Shown here: positions 35,215 through 54,494 of the stretch, piece by piece
Position numbering within the stretch: position 1 is the first letter of the stretch
Layout of the letters: each line of letters starts with the position of its first letter
Source: Candidatus Beckwithbacteria bacterium GW2011_GWC1_49_16
GTDB lineage: Bacteria; Patescibacteriota; Microgenomatia; UBA1400; CG1-02-47-37
Assembly (NCBI GenBank): GCA_001029675.1
Contig: CP011210.1
Span: 948,891-1,012,890, forward strand
Length of the DNA: 64,000 nt
Direction of reading: 5' to 3'
Translations under genes and position numbers: made by a program
The notes under the pieces: generated by a model
Told to the model about the DNA's origin: nothing
What the model saw: only the letters and a program-made list of their open reading frames with translations
Database searches by the model: none

Positions 35215-35853
35215 TCATTTTTCCGCTTGAATCAGCCCGACATTGAGGCCAAGGTGTTTCCGATTTAATTGTTTAAACCCTGCCTGCCTGACAAAAATAG
35301 GAATTTTGCCTTGGTAGTTATCGCTGGTATGTTCGAGTAAATTCTGGAGCTTAACCAAGGTGGTAAAGACTGGATTTTTTGGCTTGACGAAATCAATTAA
35401 AATCAGTCTGCCCCTTGGCTTTAAAACCCGATAGATTTCTTTTAAGGCGCGTTTTTTGTACTTTGTGGGCAAGTGATGGAGCATCAGGCTGGACCAGACT
35501 AGATCAAAAGAGTTACCTGAAAAAGGCAGTTTTTCTGCCAAAGAAATTTTAAAGTGAATGGCGGCTCCGGCTTTTTGGGATTTTTTTCTAGCAATTTGTA
35601 AAATGCTGGTGTCGGCGTCGAGACCATAGAGCTTTGATTTAGGATAGTGGGCGGCAAGATAAAGCAGGTCATCACCGGTTCCACAGCCGACGTCTAAAAT
35701 CTTGAGTCTGTCAGATAACTTAACATGCTTAAAAACACGCCTGTGGAGCGCTTTTCTTAAACCGAATGGGTTACCTAGATCATAAAAGGGAGTTAAAAAA
35801 TCAAAAAACAAGGGCGGCTTGAATTTGTATGCGGTTTTGGGGCGATGGAACAT
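35215..35853 (-). CDS. Class I SAM-dependent methyltransferase
   Basis: ILDVGCGTGDD motif I and acidic motif II LYGLDAD. Confidence 0.75.
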   Translation of the reverse strand: MFHRPKTAYKFKPPLFFDFLTPFYDLGNPFGLRKALHRRVFKHVKLSDRLKILDVGCGTGDDLLYLAAHYPKSKLYGLDADTSILQIARKKSQKAGAAIHFKISLAEKLPFSGNSFDLVWSSLMLHHLPTKYKKRALKEIYRVLKPRGRLILIDFVKPKNPVFTTLVKLQNLLEHTSDNYQGKIPIFVRQAGFKQLNRKHLGLNVGLIQAEK

Positions 35854-37484
35854 TACATTCCGCCCATGCCGCCCATGTCGGGCATGCCGCCGCCAGCCTT
35901 AGTCTCGTCTTTTTCAGGTAGGTCGCAAATTAAAGCCTCGGTGGTGAGGATCATGCCGGCCACAGAAGCGGCGTTTTGGAGAGCCGAACGGGTGACTTTG
36001 GCGGGATCAACAATACCCTGGGACAGCATCGAGCCAAACTCAAGCGTTAAGGCGTTGAAGCCAAAGTCGGCTTTGCCCTCTTCGACTTTTTTGACCACCC
36101 AACCGGCTTCGGCGCCGGAGTTTTCGGCGAGTAATCTCACCGGTTGCTTGAGGGCGAAACGCAAGATTTCTAAGCCGACTTTTTCGTCTTCGTTATCAGG
36201 AGTAACACCCTCTAGAGTTTTGATGGCTCGAAGCAGGGCCACGCCGCCTCCTGGGACAATGCCCTCTTCGATGGCGGCCTTGGTGGCTTCGACGGCGTCT
36301 TTGACGCGCTCTTGAGTTTCTTTGAGCTCGATCTCGGTGGCGGCGCCGACGTTAATGACGGCGACTCCGCCGGAAAGTTTGGCCAGGCGCTTTTCGAGAT
36401 TTTCTTTGTCGTAGTCGGAGTCGGAGCGGTCGATCTCCTGCTTGATGGCGGCGATTCTGGCGTTGATATCCTTCTTGTTACCCTTGCCGCCGATGATGCG
36501 ACAGTTGTCTTTGTCGGCCCAAACTTTTTCGGCCCGGCCGCAGTCTTCGACGGTGGCCGAATCAAGTTTTCTACCGGTGTCTTCAGAGATGACCGAGCCA
36601 CCGGTTAAAATGGCGATGTCAGTTAACATCTCTTTTCTTCTGTCGCCAAAGCCGGGGGCGTTGACGGCCAGGATGTTAAAGGCACCGCGCAATTTATTGA
36701 CTACTAAGGTAGCCAAAGCCTCACCCTCAATGTCGTCGGCGATAAGAACAATGTTTTTGGTGACTTTAACGGCAGCCTCCAGGAAAGGGAGTAGGTCGGA
36801 GATGGCGGAGATTTTCTGGTCGGTGATTAAAATCAAAGGCTCTTGGATTTCGGCTTCCATGGTGTCGGGGTTAGTGACGAAATAGGCCGAAGCGTAACCT
36901 TTGTCAAACTCCATGCCCTCTTTGTGGTCGATGGACATTTCAAAACCTTTGGATTCCTCGACTTCGACGACGCCGTCGCGGCCGGCCATTTTGAGGGCTT
37001 CGGCGATTTTGGCGCCGATTTCGGGACTGGCGGAAGAAATGGTGGCCACTTGGGTAATTTCCTGGTCGCCCTTGACGTCTTTAGCCATTTTTTTGATTTC
37101 TTCAACCACCGCGGCTACTCCCTTGTCGATGCCTCGTTTCATCAGCATCGGGTTGGCGCCGGCGGTGATGTTTTTCAAACCCCTGGAGACAATGGCTTGA
37201 GCCAGAAGGGTCGAGGTGGTGGTGCCGTCGCCGGCAACGTCGTTGGTTTTGGAGGCAGCTTCTTTAATCAGTTGGGCGCCCATGTTTTCAAAAGGATCCT
37301 CAAGGTCGATTTCTTTGGCGACGGTGACTCCGTCGTGGACGACGCTGGGGGCGCCCCATTTTTTGTCCAGAGCCACGTTTCTGCCTTTAGGGCCTAAGGT
37401 GGTAACCACGGCCTTGGAAAGAAGGTTGATGCCTTTTAAGAGTTTTTGGCGGGCTTCTTCGGAGAAAAGTAATTGTTTGGCCAT
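35853..37484 (-). CDS. groEL: Chaperonin GroEL
   Basis: Full-length typical GroEL ending in the GGM repeat. Confidence 0.95.
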
Positions 37485-37509: not shown

Positions 37510-37806
37510 CTACTTGACTAGAGCAAGTACATCCTTGAATTCGATAAATAGTAACTCGTCTTTGTCGGTGGCGCCCATTTTGACTTCGTTGCCGCCCCAT
37601 TTTTTGTAGATAATGCTGTCGCCGACTTGGCAGGGGGCCGGTCTCTTGGCCCCGGAGTCGGTGATTTCGGCGGGGCCGACTGCCAGAACCTTAGCCTGCT
37701 GGGGTTTTTCGTCGTGGGAATCGGGCAAGTAAATGCCGGAGGCGGTCTTTTTGGCCATGTCTTCCGGTTTAACAAGAATGTAGCCGGCGGTGGGTTGAAA
37801 TTTCAT
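37510..37806 (-). CDS. groES: Co-chaperonin GroES
   Basis: [14 protein letters not shown]... The ORF-track start at 37815 is a GTG extension; the ATG at 37804-37806 fits better. Confidence 0.9.
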
Positions 37807-37808
37807 AG

Positions 37809-37835
37809 TTATCACTCAATTAATGTAAGTGCTAT
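37809..37835 (-). promoter_or_regulatory. CIRCE-like inverted repeat (HrcA-operator-like) immediately upstream of groES
   Basis: In gene orientation it reads ATAGCACTT-N9-GAGTGATAA, against the consensus TTAGCACTC-N9-GAGTGCTAA (3 mismatches in 18). Confidence 0.4.
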
Positions 37836-37861
37836 TTTAACAAGCAATAAAAACTTGTCAA
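37834..37861 (-). promoter_or_regulatory. Sigma-70-like promoter for groESL (TTGACA-16-TAAAAT)
   Basis: The reverse complement of 37856-37861 is TTGACA; after a 16-nt spacer the reverse complement of 37834-37839 is TAAAAT, directly upstream of the CIRCE-like repeat. Confidence 0.4.
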
Positions 37862-37917
37862 GGGCTGGTTAATCCCTGTTGACAAAAACTGCCACTTGTA
37901 ATAACATAGTTATTACT

Positions 37918-38160
37918 ATGCCCTACCAAAGTATTTTTAAAGCTGGTAACAGCAACGTGGTTACCATTCCGACCGAGTTAATGAAAGAGCTTAACTTAAA
38001 AATTGGCGAAAAGGTGGTGGTGGAAAAATCACCGGTCGGTCAGGGTTTCTTGGTTAAAAAGGCGCCATCAAAAAGACCTTATCAAGACGAAATGCTTCAG
38101 TGGTTTAAAATTTTTGTCAAAGAAAACGGCGCTATTTTAGATGAGCTGGCAGTACGTTGA
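37918..38160 (+). CDS. AbrB/MazE (SpoVT-AbrB) family antitoxin, Phd-position partner of Doc
   Basis: ...NSNVVTIPTELMKELNLKIGEKVVVE... is a swapped-hairpin AbrB-type motif. It overlaps the doc start. Confidence 0.6.
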   Translation: MPYQSIFKAGNSNVVTIPTELMKELNLKIGEKVVVEKSPVGQGFLVKKAPSKRPYQDEMLQWFKIFVKENGAILDELAVR

Positions 38161-38530
38161 TATCGGCGAGGTTTATACCATTCACCAACTGATAATCAAA
38201 AGGGCTGGGACGAAGGCAAGCATCAGAGATTTTACTCTTCTTCACTCGGCAGTGGAGCGACCAAAAGCCAGCTTTGCTGGAAAAGATTTATACGCCAGTG
38301 TCTATACCAAAGCGGCGGCTTTGCTCCAATCCCTGTGTTTAAATCACCCCTTTAGTGACGGCAATAAACGGACTGCTTGGGCTACCACTCATCGCTTTTT
38401 ATGGAAAAACAAATGTCACTTAAAGGCTAAAACCAAAGACGCGATTGAGTTTATGATTTTTGTTGACATCAAAAAACCGCCACTCGAGGTTATCGCGGCG
38501 TGGCTAAAACAAAGAACTAAGAAATTTTAA
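38141..38530 (+). CDS. doc: Doc (death-on-curing) toxin, Fic/Doc family
   Basis: [13 protein letters not shown] is the Doc signature HxFx(D/N)GNKR. Confidence 0.8.
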
Positions 38531-39296
38531 GATCGATAAAATAGCCCACCAAGTAAGCGGCTAAGGCGGCAATCGCCCCAACCAGGAGCATTTCGATGCC
38601 GGAGCGGAGCGGGTGGCGGCGGGTTACAAGGGTGCGCAAAGAGCCGACGGTGAAAAGGGCTAAAGCGGTAAAGATGATAGATAAGTCAAAAGGGCTTAGG
38701 GGGGAAAGGCGGGCAAAAACGTAAGGTAAAAGGGGGAAAAGGCCGGCGACGGAAAAGGCGATAAAAGTTGCCAGGCCATTTTTGACCGGGCTGGCGTCGT
38801 CTTCGGCGATGAGACCTAATTCCTCGACCATCATGCAGTCGACCCAGACTTTTTTGTCGGCGGTAATGATAGCGACGGCTTTTTTAAGATCTTGGCCTTT
38901 GAAACCCTTTTTTGCCATGATGGCTTCGACTTCTTTTTTCTCCAGGTCGGGGAGATGGTCGACTTCCCATTCTTCCATTTTCCGCTCGCGTTTGATGTAC
39001 TCGAGCTCTGATTTGGTGCCCAAATAGTTGCCGATCGCCATGGCCAAGCCGTCGGCCAGAAGGTTGGCAAAGCCCAAAATCAAAACGATCGCGGGGGAAA
39101 GTCTGGCGCCGGCAACGCCGGCGACCACGGCAAAAGTGGTGACGATACCGTCGTTGGCGCCGTAAACCACGTCTCTGATATAAGTGCCGCCGATGGTGGC
39201 GTGATAGGTTTCTTTGGCGGTGCCTTGGAGGTGTTGGCGTCTGGCCTCGGCGATTTTCTGTTTTAGGCTTTGGGGCATACTAGATTTTCCCCTCAA
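38517..39296 (-). CDS. VIT1/CCC1 family iron/manganese transporter
   Basis: ...[20 protein letters not shown]... and C-terminal TM helices. Confidence 0.7.
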
Positions 39297-39750
39297 AAGT
39301 AATATCTAAGGGTTTGAGGTTGAGGCGTCGGTAAAATTTGATGGCGCGGGTGTTTTTATAATAGCAGTTCACCTGGAGAGTGCGGAGGTTGTTTTGGCGA
39401 CACCAACTTTTAAAAGCGGCAATGAGCCTGGCGCCTACTTTTTGAGATCGGTACTGGGGGAGAACGCCGATGTTTTCCAGCTCGGCTACGCTTCTAGTGC
39501 GATAAAAAAATGCTTTCTTTTTGCCGTTGAGGTAGCCCGCTGGTTTTCCGTCAATTTCGGCGATTAAGCAGCAGAATTTTTTATCCGAGGTAATTTCTTT
39601 TAAATATTTTGTCCCTGCGCGGGTAAACTCCCAGTCTGGATTGAAAAAGGGGTCAAACCGGCTGTTGGCAGTAAAAATTTCGTGGTTTAATTTTTGAATT
39701 TTTTTCCAGTCTTTGAGCTTGGCTTTTCTGATTTTTACAGGAGGGCTCAT
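39280..39750 (-). CDS. GNAT family N-acetyltransferase
   Basis: ...[21 protein letters not shown]... CoA-binding motif. Confidence 0.7.
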
Positions 39751-52164: not shown

Positions 52165-52174
52165 AGTTGCCCCT

Positions 52175-52244
52175 AAGGACAGACCTTCCAGCTTCGCTGT
52201 CCCGGCTTGGCCGTTGGCCACGCCTCCTGTTAAGGTCTGGCCTT
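52175..52244. repeat. Degenerate copy of the same repeat family in the valS 5' leader
   Basis: AAGGACAGACCTTcc...cctgttAAGGTCTGGCCTT; it shares cctgttaaggtc with copies a/b and gaccttcc with copy b. Confidence 0.6.
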
Positions 52245-52262
52245 ATTGGCTATAATACTGCC

Positions 52263-54494
52263 ATGGATAAGCGTTACCAGCCGGACCTGTTTGAGGATAA
52301 AATTTATCGAGACTGGGAGAAGTCGGGGACTTTTACCCCCAAGGCTAAAGGCGAGGCCTACTCGATCATCATGCCGCCGCCAAATGCCAACGATCCGCTT
52401 CATATCGGCCACGCCTGTTTTGTCACTTTAGAGGACATCTACGCCAGGTTTGAAAGGATGCGGGGCAAATCGGTTTTGTGGCTGCCGGGGACAGACCATG
52501 CCGGCATCGAAACCCAGTACGTCTTTGAAAAACGCTTGAAAAAAGAGGGTAAGAGCCGATTTGATTTTGACCGGGGAACTCTCTACCGGATGATTTGGGA
52601 TTACGTTGAGGAAAACTCGGGAACGGCGATAAAACAGATGAAAAAATTGGGGGCAAGCGCCGATTGGAGCCGGACCAAGTTTACTTTAGATAAAGACGTG
52701 GTCGCGATGGTGGTGGACACTTTCAAAAAACTCTACGATGACGGCTTGGTGTACCGGGAAGTGCGCTTGGTTAACTACTGTACTTCTTGCGGCACGGCCT
52801 TCTCTAACCTGGAGGTGAAGCACGTCGAAAGAGTAAGTCCCCTTTACTACATGAAGTACGGGCCGTTTACCCTGGCGACCACCAGGCCGGAGACCAAGTT
52901 CGGTGATACGGCCATCGAGGTTCACCCCGACGACAAACGTTACCAAAAATGGATCGGCCAAGAAGTCGAGGTCAAAGGTTTGGCGGGTAAGTTCAAGATG
53001 CGGGTGATTGCCGACAGAAGAGTAGACCGGAAGTTTGGCACCGGGGTGGTCAAGGTGACGCCGGCTCACGACTTTAATGATTTTGACGTTTACCTCAAAC
53101 ACAAGAAAGAGGTGCCGGGGCCAAAGCAGGTCATCGGCTTTGACGGCCGGATGAACCAGCTTGCCGGAAAGTACCAAGGACTAAAGGTGATGGAGGCAAG
53201 AAAAGCGGTGGTGGCCGACTTGACCAAGCGGGGCTTAATGGAAAAGGTGGATGAAACCTACCGGAATACCATCGGCGTCTGTTACCGCTGTGGCACAACG
53301 ATCGAGCCTTTACCCCTGCCCCAGTTTTATATCAAGGTAAAACCCCTAACCCAAAGGGCTTTGCGGGCATTAAAAGAGAAAAAAGTGAAGATCTTTGGCG
53401 CCGGCTACGACAAAATTTTGAACCACTGGCTCAAGAGCCTTGACGACTGGAACGTCAGCCGCCAAATCGTTTGGGGCATTCGCTTGCCTATATGGTATGA
53501 GGCTGATAAAAATCCGGAGGTTGAAGTTAAGTTTTTGAACAAAGACAAAAAACTCATAAGCGACCAGGTGGGCGAGTTGTTGAAAAATTATTCGTTGGCA
53601 GAGATAAAACGGGGCTTGCAAAGCCTGCGGGCGCCGCTCACGGCCAAGTTTACCGTCTCCCCTACCTCGCCGGGAGAAAATTTCCTCCAAGAAACCGATA
53701 CCTTTGACACTTGGTTTTCCAGTTCCCAGTGGCCGTTGGTTACCCTGAAGACAAGCAGATTTAAAGATGACTTTAAACGCTTTTACCCCACTAGCCTCAT
53801 GGAGACGGCTTACGACATTTTGATTTTCTGGGTGATGCGGATGCTTTTTATGGGACTTTACTTAACCGGCAAGGTACCTTTTGAAAAGGTTTATCTTCAC
53901 GGCTTGATCCGCGACGAAAAGGGGCAGAAGATGAGTAAGTCTAAGGGAAACGTGGTCGATCCGGTCGAGGTAATCCAAAAATACGGCGCCGACGCCTTAA
54001 GGATGGCTTTGGTAATTCGGTCAACGGCAGGCCGAGACAAAAACGTCGGCGACGATGATATCAGAGGCATGCGCAACTTGACTAACAAGATCTGGAATGC
54101 GGCCCGGTTTGTGATCGTGTCCAATAATACCCACTCAGAACACTCCCGGAGTGGGGTTGCGCCTGCGGCACACTCCGGGAGTGATAGCGACCTGAAAGAT
54201 GAAAAATTTAAGAAGGAGCTGTCCGGCGTGGTGAAGCAAATCACCGACCAGCTTGAAGCGATGAAGCCGGGGCTGGCGGCGGAAACGGTTTATTTCTACT
54301 TCTGGCACTGGTTTTGCGATGAATGTATTGAGCAGAACAAGCAGGGTAAAATTTCGCCACTAGCTTTGATCAAAGGTTTGCGGGTGTTTTTGAAGCTTTT
54401 ACATCCTTTTGTGCCGTTTGTAACCGAGGCAGTCTGGAGGCAGTTGCCCAAGACCGAGGAAAAATTACTGATTGGCGCCCAATGGCCCGCCTGA
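52263..54494 (+). CDS. valS: Valyl-tRNA synthetase
   Basis: PPPNANDPLHIGHA (HIGH), LPGTDHAGIETQ (the ValS hallmark) and KMSKSKGN. The start is taken at MDKRYQPD; the ORF-track start at 52167 reads through the palindromic repeat. Confidence 0.85.
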   Translation: MDKRYQPDLFEDKIYRDWEKSGTFTPKAKGEAYSIIMPPPNANDPLHIGHACFVTLEDIYARFERMRGKSVLWLPGTDHAGIETQYVFEKRLKKEGKSRFDFDRGTLYRMIWDYVEENSGTAIKQMKKLGASADWSRTKFTLDKDVVAMVVDTFKKLYDDGLVYREVRLVNYCTSCGTAFSNLEVKHVERVSPLYYMKYGPFTLATTRPETKFGDTAIEVHPDDKRYQKWIGQEVEVKGLAGKFKMRVIADRRVDRKFGTGVVKVTPAHDFNDFDVYLKHKKEVPGPKQVIGFDGRMNQLAGKYQGLKVMEARKAVVADLTKRGLMEKVDETYRNTIGVCYRCGTTIEPLPLPQFYIKVKPLTQRALRALKEKKVKIFGAGYDKILNHWLKSLDDWNVSRQIVWGIRLPIWYEADKNPEVEVKFLNKDKKLISDQVGELLKNYSLAEIKRGLQSLRAPLTAKFTVSPTSPGENFLQETDTFDTWFSSSQWPLVTLKTSRFKDDFKRFYPTSLMETAYDILIFWVMRMLFMGLYLTGKVPFEKVYLHGLIRDEKGQKMSKSKGNVVDPVEVIQKYGADALRMALVIRSTAGRDKNVGDDDIRGMRNLTNKIWNAARFVIVSNNTHSEHSRSGVAPAAHSGSDSDLKDEKFKKELSGVVKQITDQLEAMKPGLAAETVYFYFWHWFCDECIEQNKQGKISPLALIKGLRVFLKLLHPFVPFVTEAVWRQLPKTEEKLLIGAQWPA

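Follow-up and report, generated by a model that had tools for sequence, protein, structure and literature searches.

The locus lies within a 64-kb window (64,000 nucleotides, the whole stretch of DNA that was analyzed), where a small toxin–antitoxin (TA) module stands back to back with groES and groEL. The genes, given by their positions in the window, are the following:

35853 to 37484, minus strand: groEL, an open reading frame (ORF) of 543 amino acids, with PF00118 (Cpn60_TCP1) called on an identical contig; a neighbor outside the TA module.
37510 to 37806, minus strand: groES, 98 amino acids from the ATG at 37806, matching PF00166 (Cpn10, E = 1.3e-24) and the NCBIfam co-chaperone GroES models.
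37918 to 38160, plus strand: the antitoxin gene, 80 amino acids from its ATG, with an AbrB/MazE/SpoVT fold.
38141 to 38530, plus strand: the Doc toxin gene, 129 amino acids, Fic fold, PF02661.
38517 to 39296, minus strand: a VIT1-family gene (PF01988, E = 8e-70), convergent with the Doc gene.

The original prediction described a Doc toxin preceded by an overlapping 80-amino-acid antitoxin of the AbrB/MazE type, the pair being divergent from groES across about 110 bp. This layout is borne out by the ORFs at 37918–38160 and 38141–38530, which overlap by 20 nt, by the Pfam matches of their products, and by the measured gap between groES and the antitoxin gene, 111 bp (37807–37917). The order, with a small antitoxin gene directly upstream of a single-domain Doc, is kept in all relatives. 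At the other end, the ORF coordinates of the Doc and VIT1-family genes give a 14-nt overlap of their 3′ ends, and the VIT1-family gene is the right border of the cassette, which extends over ∼650 bp (37879–38530). Its GC content is 41.4%, compared with 50.4 ± 4.1% for 650-bp segments across the window (2.7th percentile), and the neighboring accessory genes, encoding a methyltransferase and a GNAT protein, have a similarly low GC content. The low GC of cassette and neighbors alike fits an originally foreign accessory element in a variable region. A search of the 64-kb window found no paralogs of either Doc or the antitoxin.

The toxin is recognized by both Pfam and NCBIfam. It scores 66.3 bits against PF02661 (Fic/DOC; E = 4.5e-18; gathering cutoff 24) and passes the trusted cutoff of TIGR01550 (DOC_P1) marginally, with 38.9 bits against 38.65. 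The protein is 100% identical to an annotated "death-on-curing family protein" of Candidatus Beckwithbacteria bacterium GW2011_GWB1_47_15; the gene has therefore already been annotated, and the match assigns the window to a groundwater genome of the CPR/Microgenomates. Its catalytic motif lies as follows:

38345 to 38377, plus strand: Doc catalytic motif, 11 residues (69–79), fitting H-x-F-x-[DN]-[AG]-N-K-R.

In an alignment of 20 sequences, F71 and D73–T78 are invariant and H69 is conserved in at least 90%. The family profile aligns residues 5–123 with residues 3–119 of P1 Doc (PDB 3K33, E = 1.3e-6) and sets the catalytic motif against HIFNDANKRTA of that structure; P1 Doc was reached only through this 20-sequence profile, the single-sequence PDB search having reached 9vzc only. 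The canonical Doc motif that had been predicted is thus in place, the catalytic histidine (H69) included, and the loss of either, which would have spoken against a Doc assignment, is not seen.

The antitoxin matches PF04014 (MazE_antitoxin, SpoVT/AbrB-like) over residues 6–51 (E = 5.6e-9) with 36.3 bits against a gathering cutoff of 24.7, so that both members of the pair exceed the cutoffs of the Pfam families named for them by the original prediction. The single-sequence PDB search matched it weakly to MazE/PemI structures. Among the NCBIfam models, TIGR02609 (doc_partner) fits best (E = 2.3e-10, model positions 3–73 of 74), with a score below the trusted cutoff (40.7 vs. 55.9 bits), and because of this shortfall we class the protein as doc_partner-like with an AbrB/MazE fold and leave it outside the TIGR02609 equivalog. 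The protein has the swapped-hairpin N-terminal domain of AbrB, MazE, and SpoVT, with a C-terminal tail that is presumed to bind Doc. The label "Phd" that was initially attached to the antitoxin has to be dropped: The Pfam scan finds no Phd/YefM domain (PF02604) in it at E ≤ 0.01, and its best NCBIfam family is of the AbrB type. We also rejected membership of the pair in a listed defense system. With PADLOC, Doc gives no more than partial matches, at the level of a domain, to candidate proteins of larger size that contain Fic (PDC-S23 among them), and the antitoxin has no match.

Two features occupy the TA side of the intergenic region:

37879 to 37907, plus strand: candidate TA promoter TTGACA-17-TAACAT, 10 of 12 matches, conserved across the family.
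37898 to 37916: dyad GTAATAAC-ATA-GTTATTAC, overlapping the TA −10 box and ending 1 nt before the antitoxin ATG.

A promoter scan taken alone does not rise above chance here (two promoters found, with 1.5 expected in shuffles), and conservation in relatives was therefore used as the test of a promoter; it supports both this site and the one on the groES side. The TA-side candidate had been proposed from the sequence of this window, and the same arrangement, TTGAC-N17-TAAC(A/G)T followed after 9–11 nt by ATG, recurs in 34 of 44 distinct family members found in unrelated contexts. A half-site of the GTwATwAC type is present in 31 of the 44, usually as a dyad with 3-nt spacing over the −10 box. 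No other copy of the dyad occurs elsewhere in the 64-kb window, and among lineages whose synonymous sites are saturated, it is nearly invariant. We infer that it is a candidate operator for autorepression by the antitoxin, the binding itself being predicted from its position and conservation. Wherever it is located, the AbrB-Doc module thus appears to carry its own conserved promoter and operator.

The distance from the −10 hexamer to the antitoxin ATG is 10–12 nt, slightly more than is usual between this element and a transcription start. The antitoxin mRNA is therefore probably leaderless or provided with a leader of a few nucleotides, a leader of 2–5 nt being as likely as none; a few family members (L117 and L134) carry a GGAG-type leader instead. 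A different picture would follow if translation began at the TTG at 37879, giving an antitoxin of 93 amino acids: The presumed promoter and operator would then be coding sequence, and the real promoter would lie elsewhere. Gene callers report this length on some contigs, and the reading frame is indeed open from 37879. The TTG concerned, however, opens the TTGACA box. The conserved DNA upstream of the ATG is the dyad, which lies 9, 10, or 11 nt from the ATG in different family members; shifts by single nucleotides break any common reading frame, so the conservation is at the level of DNA and not that of an N-terminal extension. Homologs, moreover, align from the ATG (MQIQT.../MPYQS...), and the GGAG-type leaders of L117 and L134 are situated between dyad and ATG. 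We consider the longer form very unlikely and retain the ATG at 37918.

The groES side of the intergenic region likewise holds two features:

37834 to 37861, minus strand: groES promoter TTGACA-16-TAAAAT, TG-extended, 11 of 12 matches.
37809 to 37835: CIRCE-like inverted repeat ATAGCACTT-N9-GAGTGATAA (as read on the groES strand), the presumed HrcA operator.

Both had been noted before on the groES side and were found again at these positions. The repeat matches the CIRCE consensus, TTAGCACTC-N9-GAGTGCTAA (PMC7464140), at 15 of 18 specified bases (three mismatches) and is the sole such site in 64 kb, where 0.02 would be expected by chance. It overlaps the groES −10 box by 2 nt and reaches downstream to 3 nt before the groES ATG, so that in this genome the repeat abuts the start codon and groES has no Shine-Dalgarno leader. 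As an RNA hairpin it is weak (−4.2 kcal/mol, z = −2.0).

All 12 relatives examined have kept the TTGACA and −10 boxes of groES, those with a TA module and those lacking it alike, and the same promoter and CIRCE variant (TAGCACT...AGTGATA) lie upstream of groES in every relative inspected, near or farther. More broadly, among the 76 Patescibacteria groES loci with sufficient upstream sequence, 61 have a CIRCE-like site (four mismatches at most), and 58 of these 61 have TTGAC just upstream. The groES control region thus appears to be ancestral and to owe nothing to the TA module.

At least seven related lineages have the two units side by side. It was found in the window and at loci L002–L007, L008–L013, L026, L103–L105, and L125, with Doc proteins 71%–82% identical and antitoxins 61%–71% identical. 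Contigs with Doc proteins 82% and 77% identical have the TA pair at the same groES site; L026, which represents a species in GTDB, and L103–L105 and L125, contigs from metagenomes, have it there too (Doc 71%–78% identical). In a GroEL tree, the lineages with a full-length GroEL (n = 5) form a clade with 82%–88% mutual identity, against 66%–72% for the outgroups. Conservation of the adjacency, a point left open by the original prediction, is therefore real but limited in extent: From the loci compared, it appears to be confined to one genus-level clade of Beckwithbacteria. No Doc gene lies within 4 kb of groES at the other approximately 75 Patescibacteria groES loci scanned, and groES is found near the module at four of 80 metagenome loci, all four being clade members.

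Within these limits the geometry varies. The two −35 boxes are separated by 17 nt in the window and by 8, 13, 14, 15, 16, or 25 nt in relatives, and in the L008 group a fragment of an ISL3 transposase gene lies between groES and the module, leaving ∼640 bp between the units. Two members of the clade are without the module, a GNAT gene (L027) or an alpha/beta-hydrolase gene (L025) being found directly upstream of groES. A further member, L024, has a different AbrB-Doc pair (47% identity) that is less closely related to the groES-linked pairs than to others; it is codirectional with groES, and its TGA stop codon falls inside the groES −35 box. A residual oddity is that, in sister lineages, the same gap upstream of groES has received two Doc pairs that are unrelated to each other. 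Beyond the clade, Doc homologs of up to 73% identity occur in other contexts in Woesebacteria, Amesbacteria, and other groups, and one in Amesbacteria is divergent from ftsH, a protein quality-control gene. None of the TA loci away from groES, the ftsH-adjacent ones included, has a CIRCE-like site.

The TA genes themselves are intact in all lineages. Values of dN range from 0.05 to 0.30, dS is at least ∼0.7 or saturated, and omega, where computable, is 0.04–0.20 for both genes, as expected under purifying selection. Purifying selection together with saturated dS indicates long-standing maintenance of a functional pair. The alternative, that the cassette was inserted horizontally into this genome alone and recently, draws on the low GC content of the cassette relative to the window and on the scattering of the family over Microgenomates in many contexts. 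Against it stand the occupation of the same site in several species-level relatives, at the protein divergences given above and with dS saturated, the equally low GC of the methyltransferase and GNAT neighbors, and the lack of convincing repeats flanking the cassette. Such an insertion is therefore extremely unlikely. What had been raised as grounds for doubting the predicted neighborhood, an adjacency unique to this genome with signs of recent insertion, is thus not what the relatives show.

Two repeat pairs were considered as borders of the cassette and rejected. The inverted pair I5 (16 nt, 88%; 37795–37810 and 38515–38530) brackets the intergenic region and the cassette, and the direct pair D9 (22 nt, 82%) lies at 37795–37816 and 37896–37917. 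The left copies of both are in groES codons 1–4, which differ in relatives that have the same module, and the 94 inverted pairs present within 1.6 kb also count against them as borders. D9 is explained by the resemblance of the CIRCE arm TTATCACT to the operator half-site TTATTAC, combined with a leader deletion specific to the window.

Placing a toxin module against the main heat-shock operon had been put forward as an unusual regulatory neighborhood. Such functional coupling would mean that TA and groESL expression influence each other, Doc activity thereby becoming linked to proteotoxic stress. This might come about through an overlap of the upstream promoter regions, through supercoiling generated by divergent transcription, or through HrcA and the antitoxin acting across the 111 bp. 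The proximity of the −35 boxes in the window, 17 bp apart, is compatible with this, as is the fact that at least seven lineages with saturated synonymous sites have retained the adjacency under purifying selection. Two further loci point in the same direction, namely, L024, where an independent Doc pair immediately precedes groES and its stop codon falls within the −35 box of groES, and that of the Amesbacteria homolog beside a quality-control gene. In a coregulated divergent pair, however, both adjacency and geometry would be conserved, and here the adjacency is seen in one clade, the spacing of the −35 boxes ranges over 8–25 nt, the ∼640-bp separation with its insertion sequence fragment is tolerated in the L008 group, the module has been lost in L025 and L027, and the orientation is reversed in L024.

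The control elements speak against coupling as well: Relatives that have no module show the same groES promoter and CIRCE, the TA promoter and operator do not differ between unrelated contexts, no CIRCE-like site accompanies the module at any locus away from groES, and Doc is missing from the vicinity of groES in the remaining Patescibacteria loci scanned. Coupling in this sense is hence improbable, and the TA and groES promoters probably act independently of each other. We give a similarly low probability to a related proposal, namely, that the groES promoter of the Beckwithbacteria clade is a preferred place for Doc-type modules to be kept or captured, their expression being mechanistically tied to the heat-shock promoter; supercoiling from divergent transcription, read-through into groES, or a chaperone dependence of the toxin–antitoxin balance may serve as routes. 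A variable hot spot explains both the long retention and the second Doc pair in L024, with a selective link to groESL as a possible contribution. Very probably, then, the locus holds a self-contained type II TA cassette that is a neighbor of groESL and not part of a regulatory unit with it, its position being due to descent and to a variable insertion site.

AbrB is the most common partner of Fic/Doc, with 55 pairs and a more than threefold over-representation (Makarova et al. 2009, PMC2701414), and the same pair of AbrB/MazE/SpoVT and Doc annotations occurs on plasmids. The present pair resembles this class (TIGR02609/TIGR01550; PMC2701414) in gene order, in the sizes of its products (∼80 and 129 amino acids), in the overlap of stop and start, in the AbrB-fold N terminus of the antitoxin, and in the Doc motif HxFxDGNKR. 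It differs from it in an antitoxin that scores below the TIGR02609 cutoff and in the remarkably conserved promoter and dyad of the Microgenomates subfamily, which are set directly against the ATG. Judged on these features, the pair is an ordinary representative of the AbrB-Doc class among type II TA systems.

In comparison with the P1 Phd/Doc system (PDB 3K33, 3DD7, and 3KH2), the toxin is alike in fold family, length, and catalytic motif, and the presumed mechanism is alike too, comprising phosphorylation of EF-Tu, a block by the antitoxin C terminus, and autorepression. The antitoxin here is of the AbrB/MazE fold, not Phd/YefM, and the module is located on the chromosome of a CPR bacterium; since the antitoxin fold differs, this is not a Phd/Doc system in the strict sense. 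The groES side resembles CIRCE/HrcA-controlled groESL operons (PMC7464140) in its 9-nt-spaced repeat between the −10 box and the groES start and in the sigma-70 promoter upstream, and it differs in that the repeat is a variant of this lineage, asymmetric in a conserved way (TAGCACT ... AGTGATA), and in this genome abuts the ATG. Our literature search found nothing specific on TA–groESL adjacency or on Doc modules in CPR bacteria, nor a published description of a conserved promoter and dyad directly against the ATG in the Microgenomates AbrB-Doc subfamily.

These comparisons suggest how the cassette may work. Its own sigma-70-type promoter, TTGACA-17-TAACAT, would drive a bicistronic and almost leaderless mRNA, the ATG lying 10 nt past the −10 box, and translation of Doc would be coupled to that of the antitoxin through the 20-nt gene overlap. 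Doc of P1 and Salmonella phosphorylates EF-Tu on a conserved threonine and halts translation, and Phd inhibits Doc (PMC9207808). By analogy, unbound Doc would phosphorylate EF-Tu at the corresponding threonine and bring translation to a halt, the C-terminal segment of the antitoxin would neutralize Doc, and depletion of the antitoxin would set Doc free; the kinase activity, the toxicity, and the operator binding are all predicted from the better-known systems. A dimer of the antitoxin would bind the dyad GTAATAAC-N3-GTTATTAC over the −10 box and so repress its own operon. As to its history, the cassette probably entered a variable accessory slot upstream of the groESL promoter in the ancestor of the genus-level Beckwithbacteria clade and would since have been inherited within that clade, with losses and one replacement, while groESL kept its ancestral promoter and CIRCE.

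The story of a toxin placed beside the heat-shock operon accordingly offers little new biology, since descent and a variable insertion site explain it. Of modest use are two by-products of the comparison. One is the lineage-specific CIRCE variant, conserved in front of groES across Patescibacteria. The other is a signature of the AbrB-Doc cassettes of Microgenomates, TTGACA-N17-TAACAT over a GTwATwAC dyad with the ATG 9–11 nt farther on, which predicts near-leaderless expression and a testable operator.

In the window (37806-37835), the right CIRCE arm stops 3 nt ahead of the groES ATG, and a Shine-Dalgarno leader is absent. In all relatives, by comparison, the groES leader is 25-110 nt long and carries GGAGG; upstream of groES at L002, a locus of the lineage with an 82%-identical Doc, the DNA reads ...GAGTGATAA[GTAAAAATTAGGAGGATTTAA]CTATG. 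The GroES N-terminus, MKFQPT... in the window, is ~3 residues shorter than that of the relatives (MA(K/T)PNLKP...), and from this pattern it looks as though the leader and first codons of the window gene have been deleted. An assembly error as the cause of the short start is ruled out, since the identical sequence was read on 24 contigs.

The CIRCE is itself asymmetric: in the window (37809-37835) and at groES loci L024-L047 of relatives, a left arm TAGCACT is paired with a right arm AGTGATA, not AGTGCTA, and this imperfect palindrome is kept across many Microgenomates among the groES loci compared. In sequence, the CIRCE arm and the half-site of the window's candidate TA operator are identical but for one base. 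There is also a 22-nt direct repeat in the window (82% identical), with one copy at the groES start (37795-37816, CATAGTTATCACT) and the other at the antitoxin start (37896-37917, CATAGTTATTACT); it is probably the product of chance together with the groES leader deletion.

Gene content between groES and a conserved SBP gene differs among the relatives, the genes seen there being VIT1, GNAT, alpha/beta-hydrolase, phosphoribosyltransferase, and CTP_transf-like genes of differing lengths. The following features lie around groESL in the window and in relatives.

Window 35215-35853: methyltransferase gene
Window 39280-39750: GNAT gene
L008:4212-4610: ISL3-family transposase fragment (132 aa)
L008:8633-9290: PIN_3 and MazE-type TA pair
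L024:3249-3895 (sister species): second AbrB-Doc pair
L002:1333-2391, L003:1171-2496, L007:619-1944: large Fic-domain proteins (352-441 aa; PF02661)

GC content is low (42%-44%) in both the methyltransferase and the GNAT gene, as it is in the TA cassette; these two genes flank the groESL-TA-VIT1 block and are not found in every relative. At L008, a relative's locus, groES and the TA module are separated by the inserted transposase fragment, and the PIN_3 pair is ~4 kb away. The pair in the sister species is unrelated to that of the window (Doc 47% identical) and is located directly upstream of groES and co-directional with it, its TGA stop being contained in the groES -35 box TTGACA; its promoter and dyad are of the same type as in the window module (GTTATAAC-ATA-GTTATAAC). 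The large Fic-domain genes, all from the lineage whose Doc is 82% identical, lie directly downstream of groEL, and in these genomes Fic/Doc-family genes are therefore present on both sides of groESL.

Elsewhere in the window, ARAGORN calls a 96-nt tRNA-Gly(GCC) on the minus strand (53237-53332; anticodon at position 39) within a long plus-strand ORF (52167-54494). The Rfam tRNA model does not report this segment at gathering score; either the call is a false positive or the tRNA is unusual and contains an intron.

In Amesbacteria (L017-L019:471-3665), ftsH and the TA-pair homologue (Doc 71%) are transcribed divergently. The ftsH gene carries an intein that includes a LAGLIDADG endonuclease (PF14890, PF14528), and the locus has no CIRCE-like site. 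Doc and a convergent gene share 8-17 nt at their 3′ ends in several contexts that are unrelated to one another, the partners being VIT1, an alpha/beta-hydrolase, an unknown gene, and a tRNA synthetase-like gene.

Window 38517-38530: Doc 3′ overlap
L002:5377-5393: Doc 3′ overlap
L008:5377-5390: Doc 3′ overlap
L014:4386-4402: Doc 3′ overlap
L017:4386-4393: Doc 3′ overlap

No terminator-like site was found on the plus strand after Doc in the window, and the overlap of Doc with its convergent neighbors may lead to convergent transcriptional interference.
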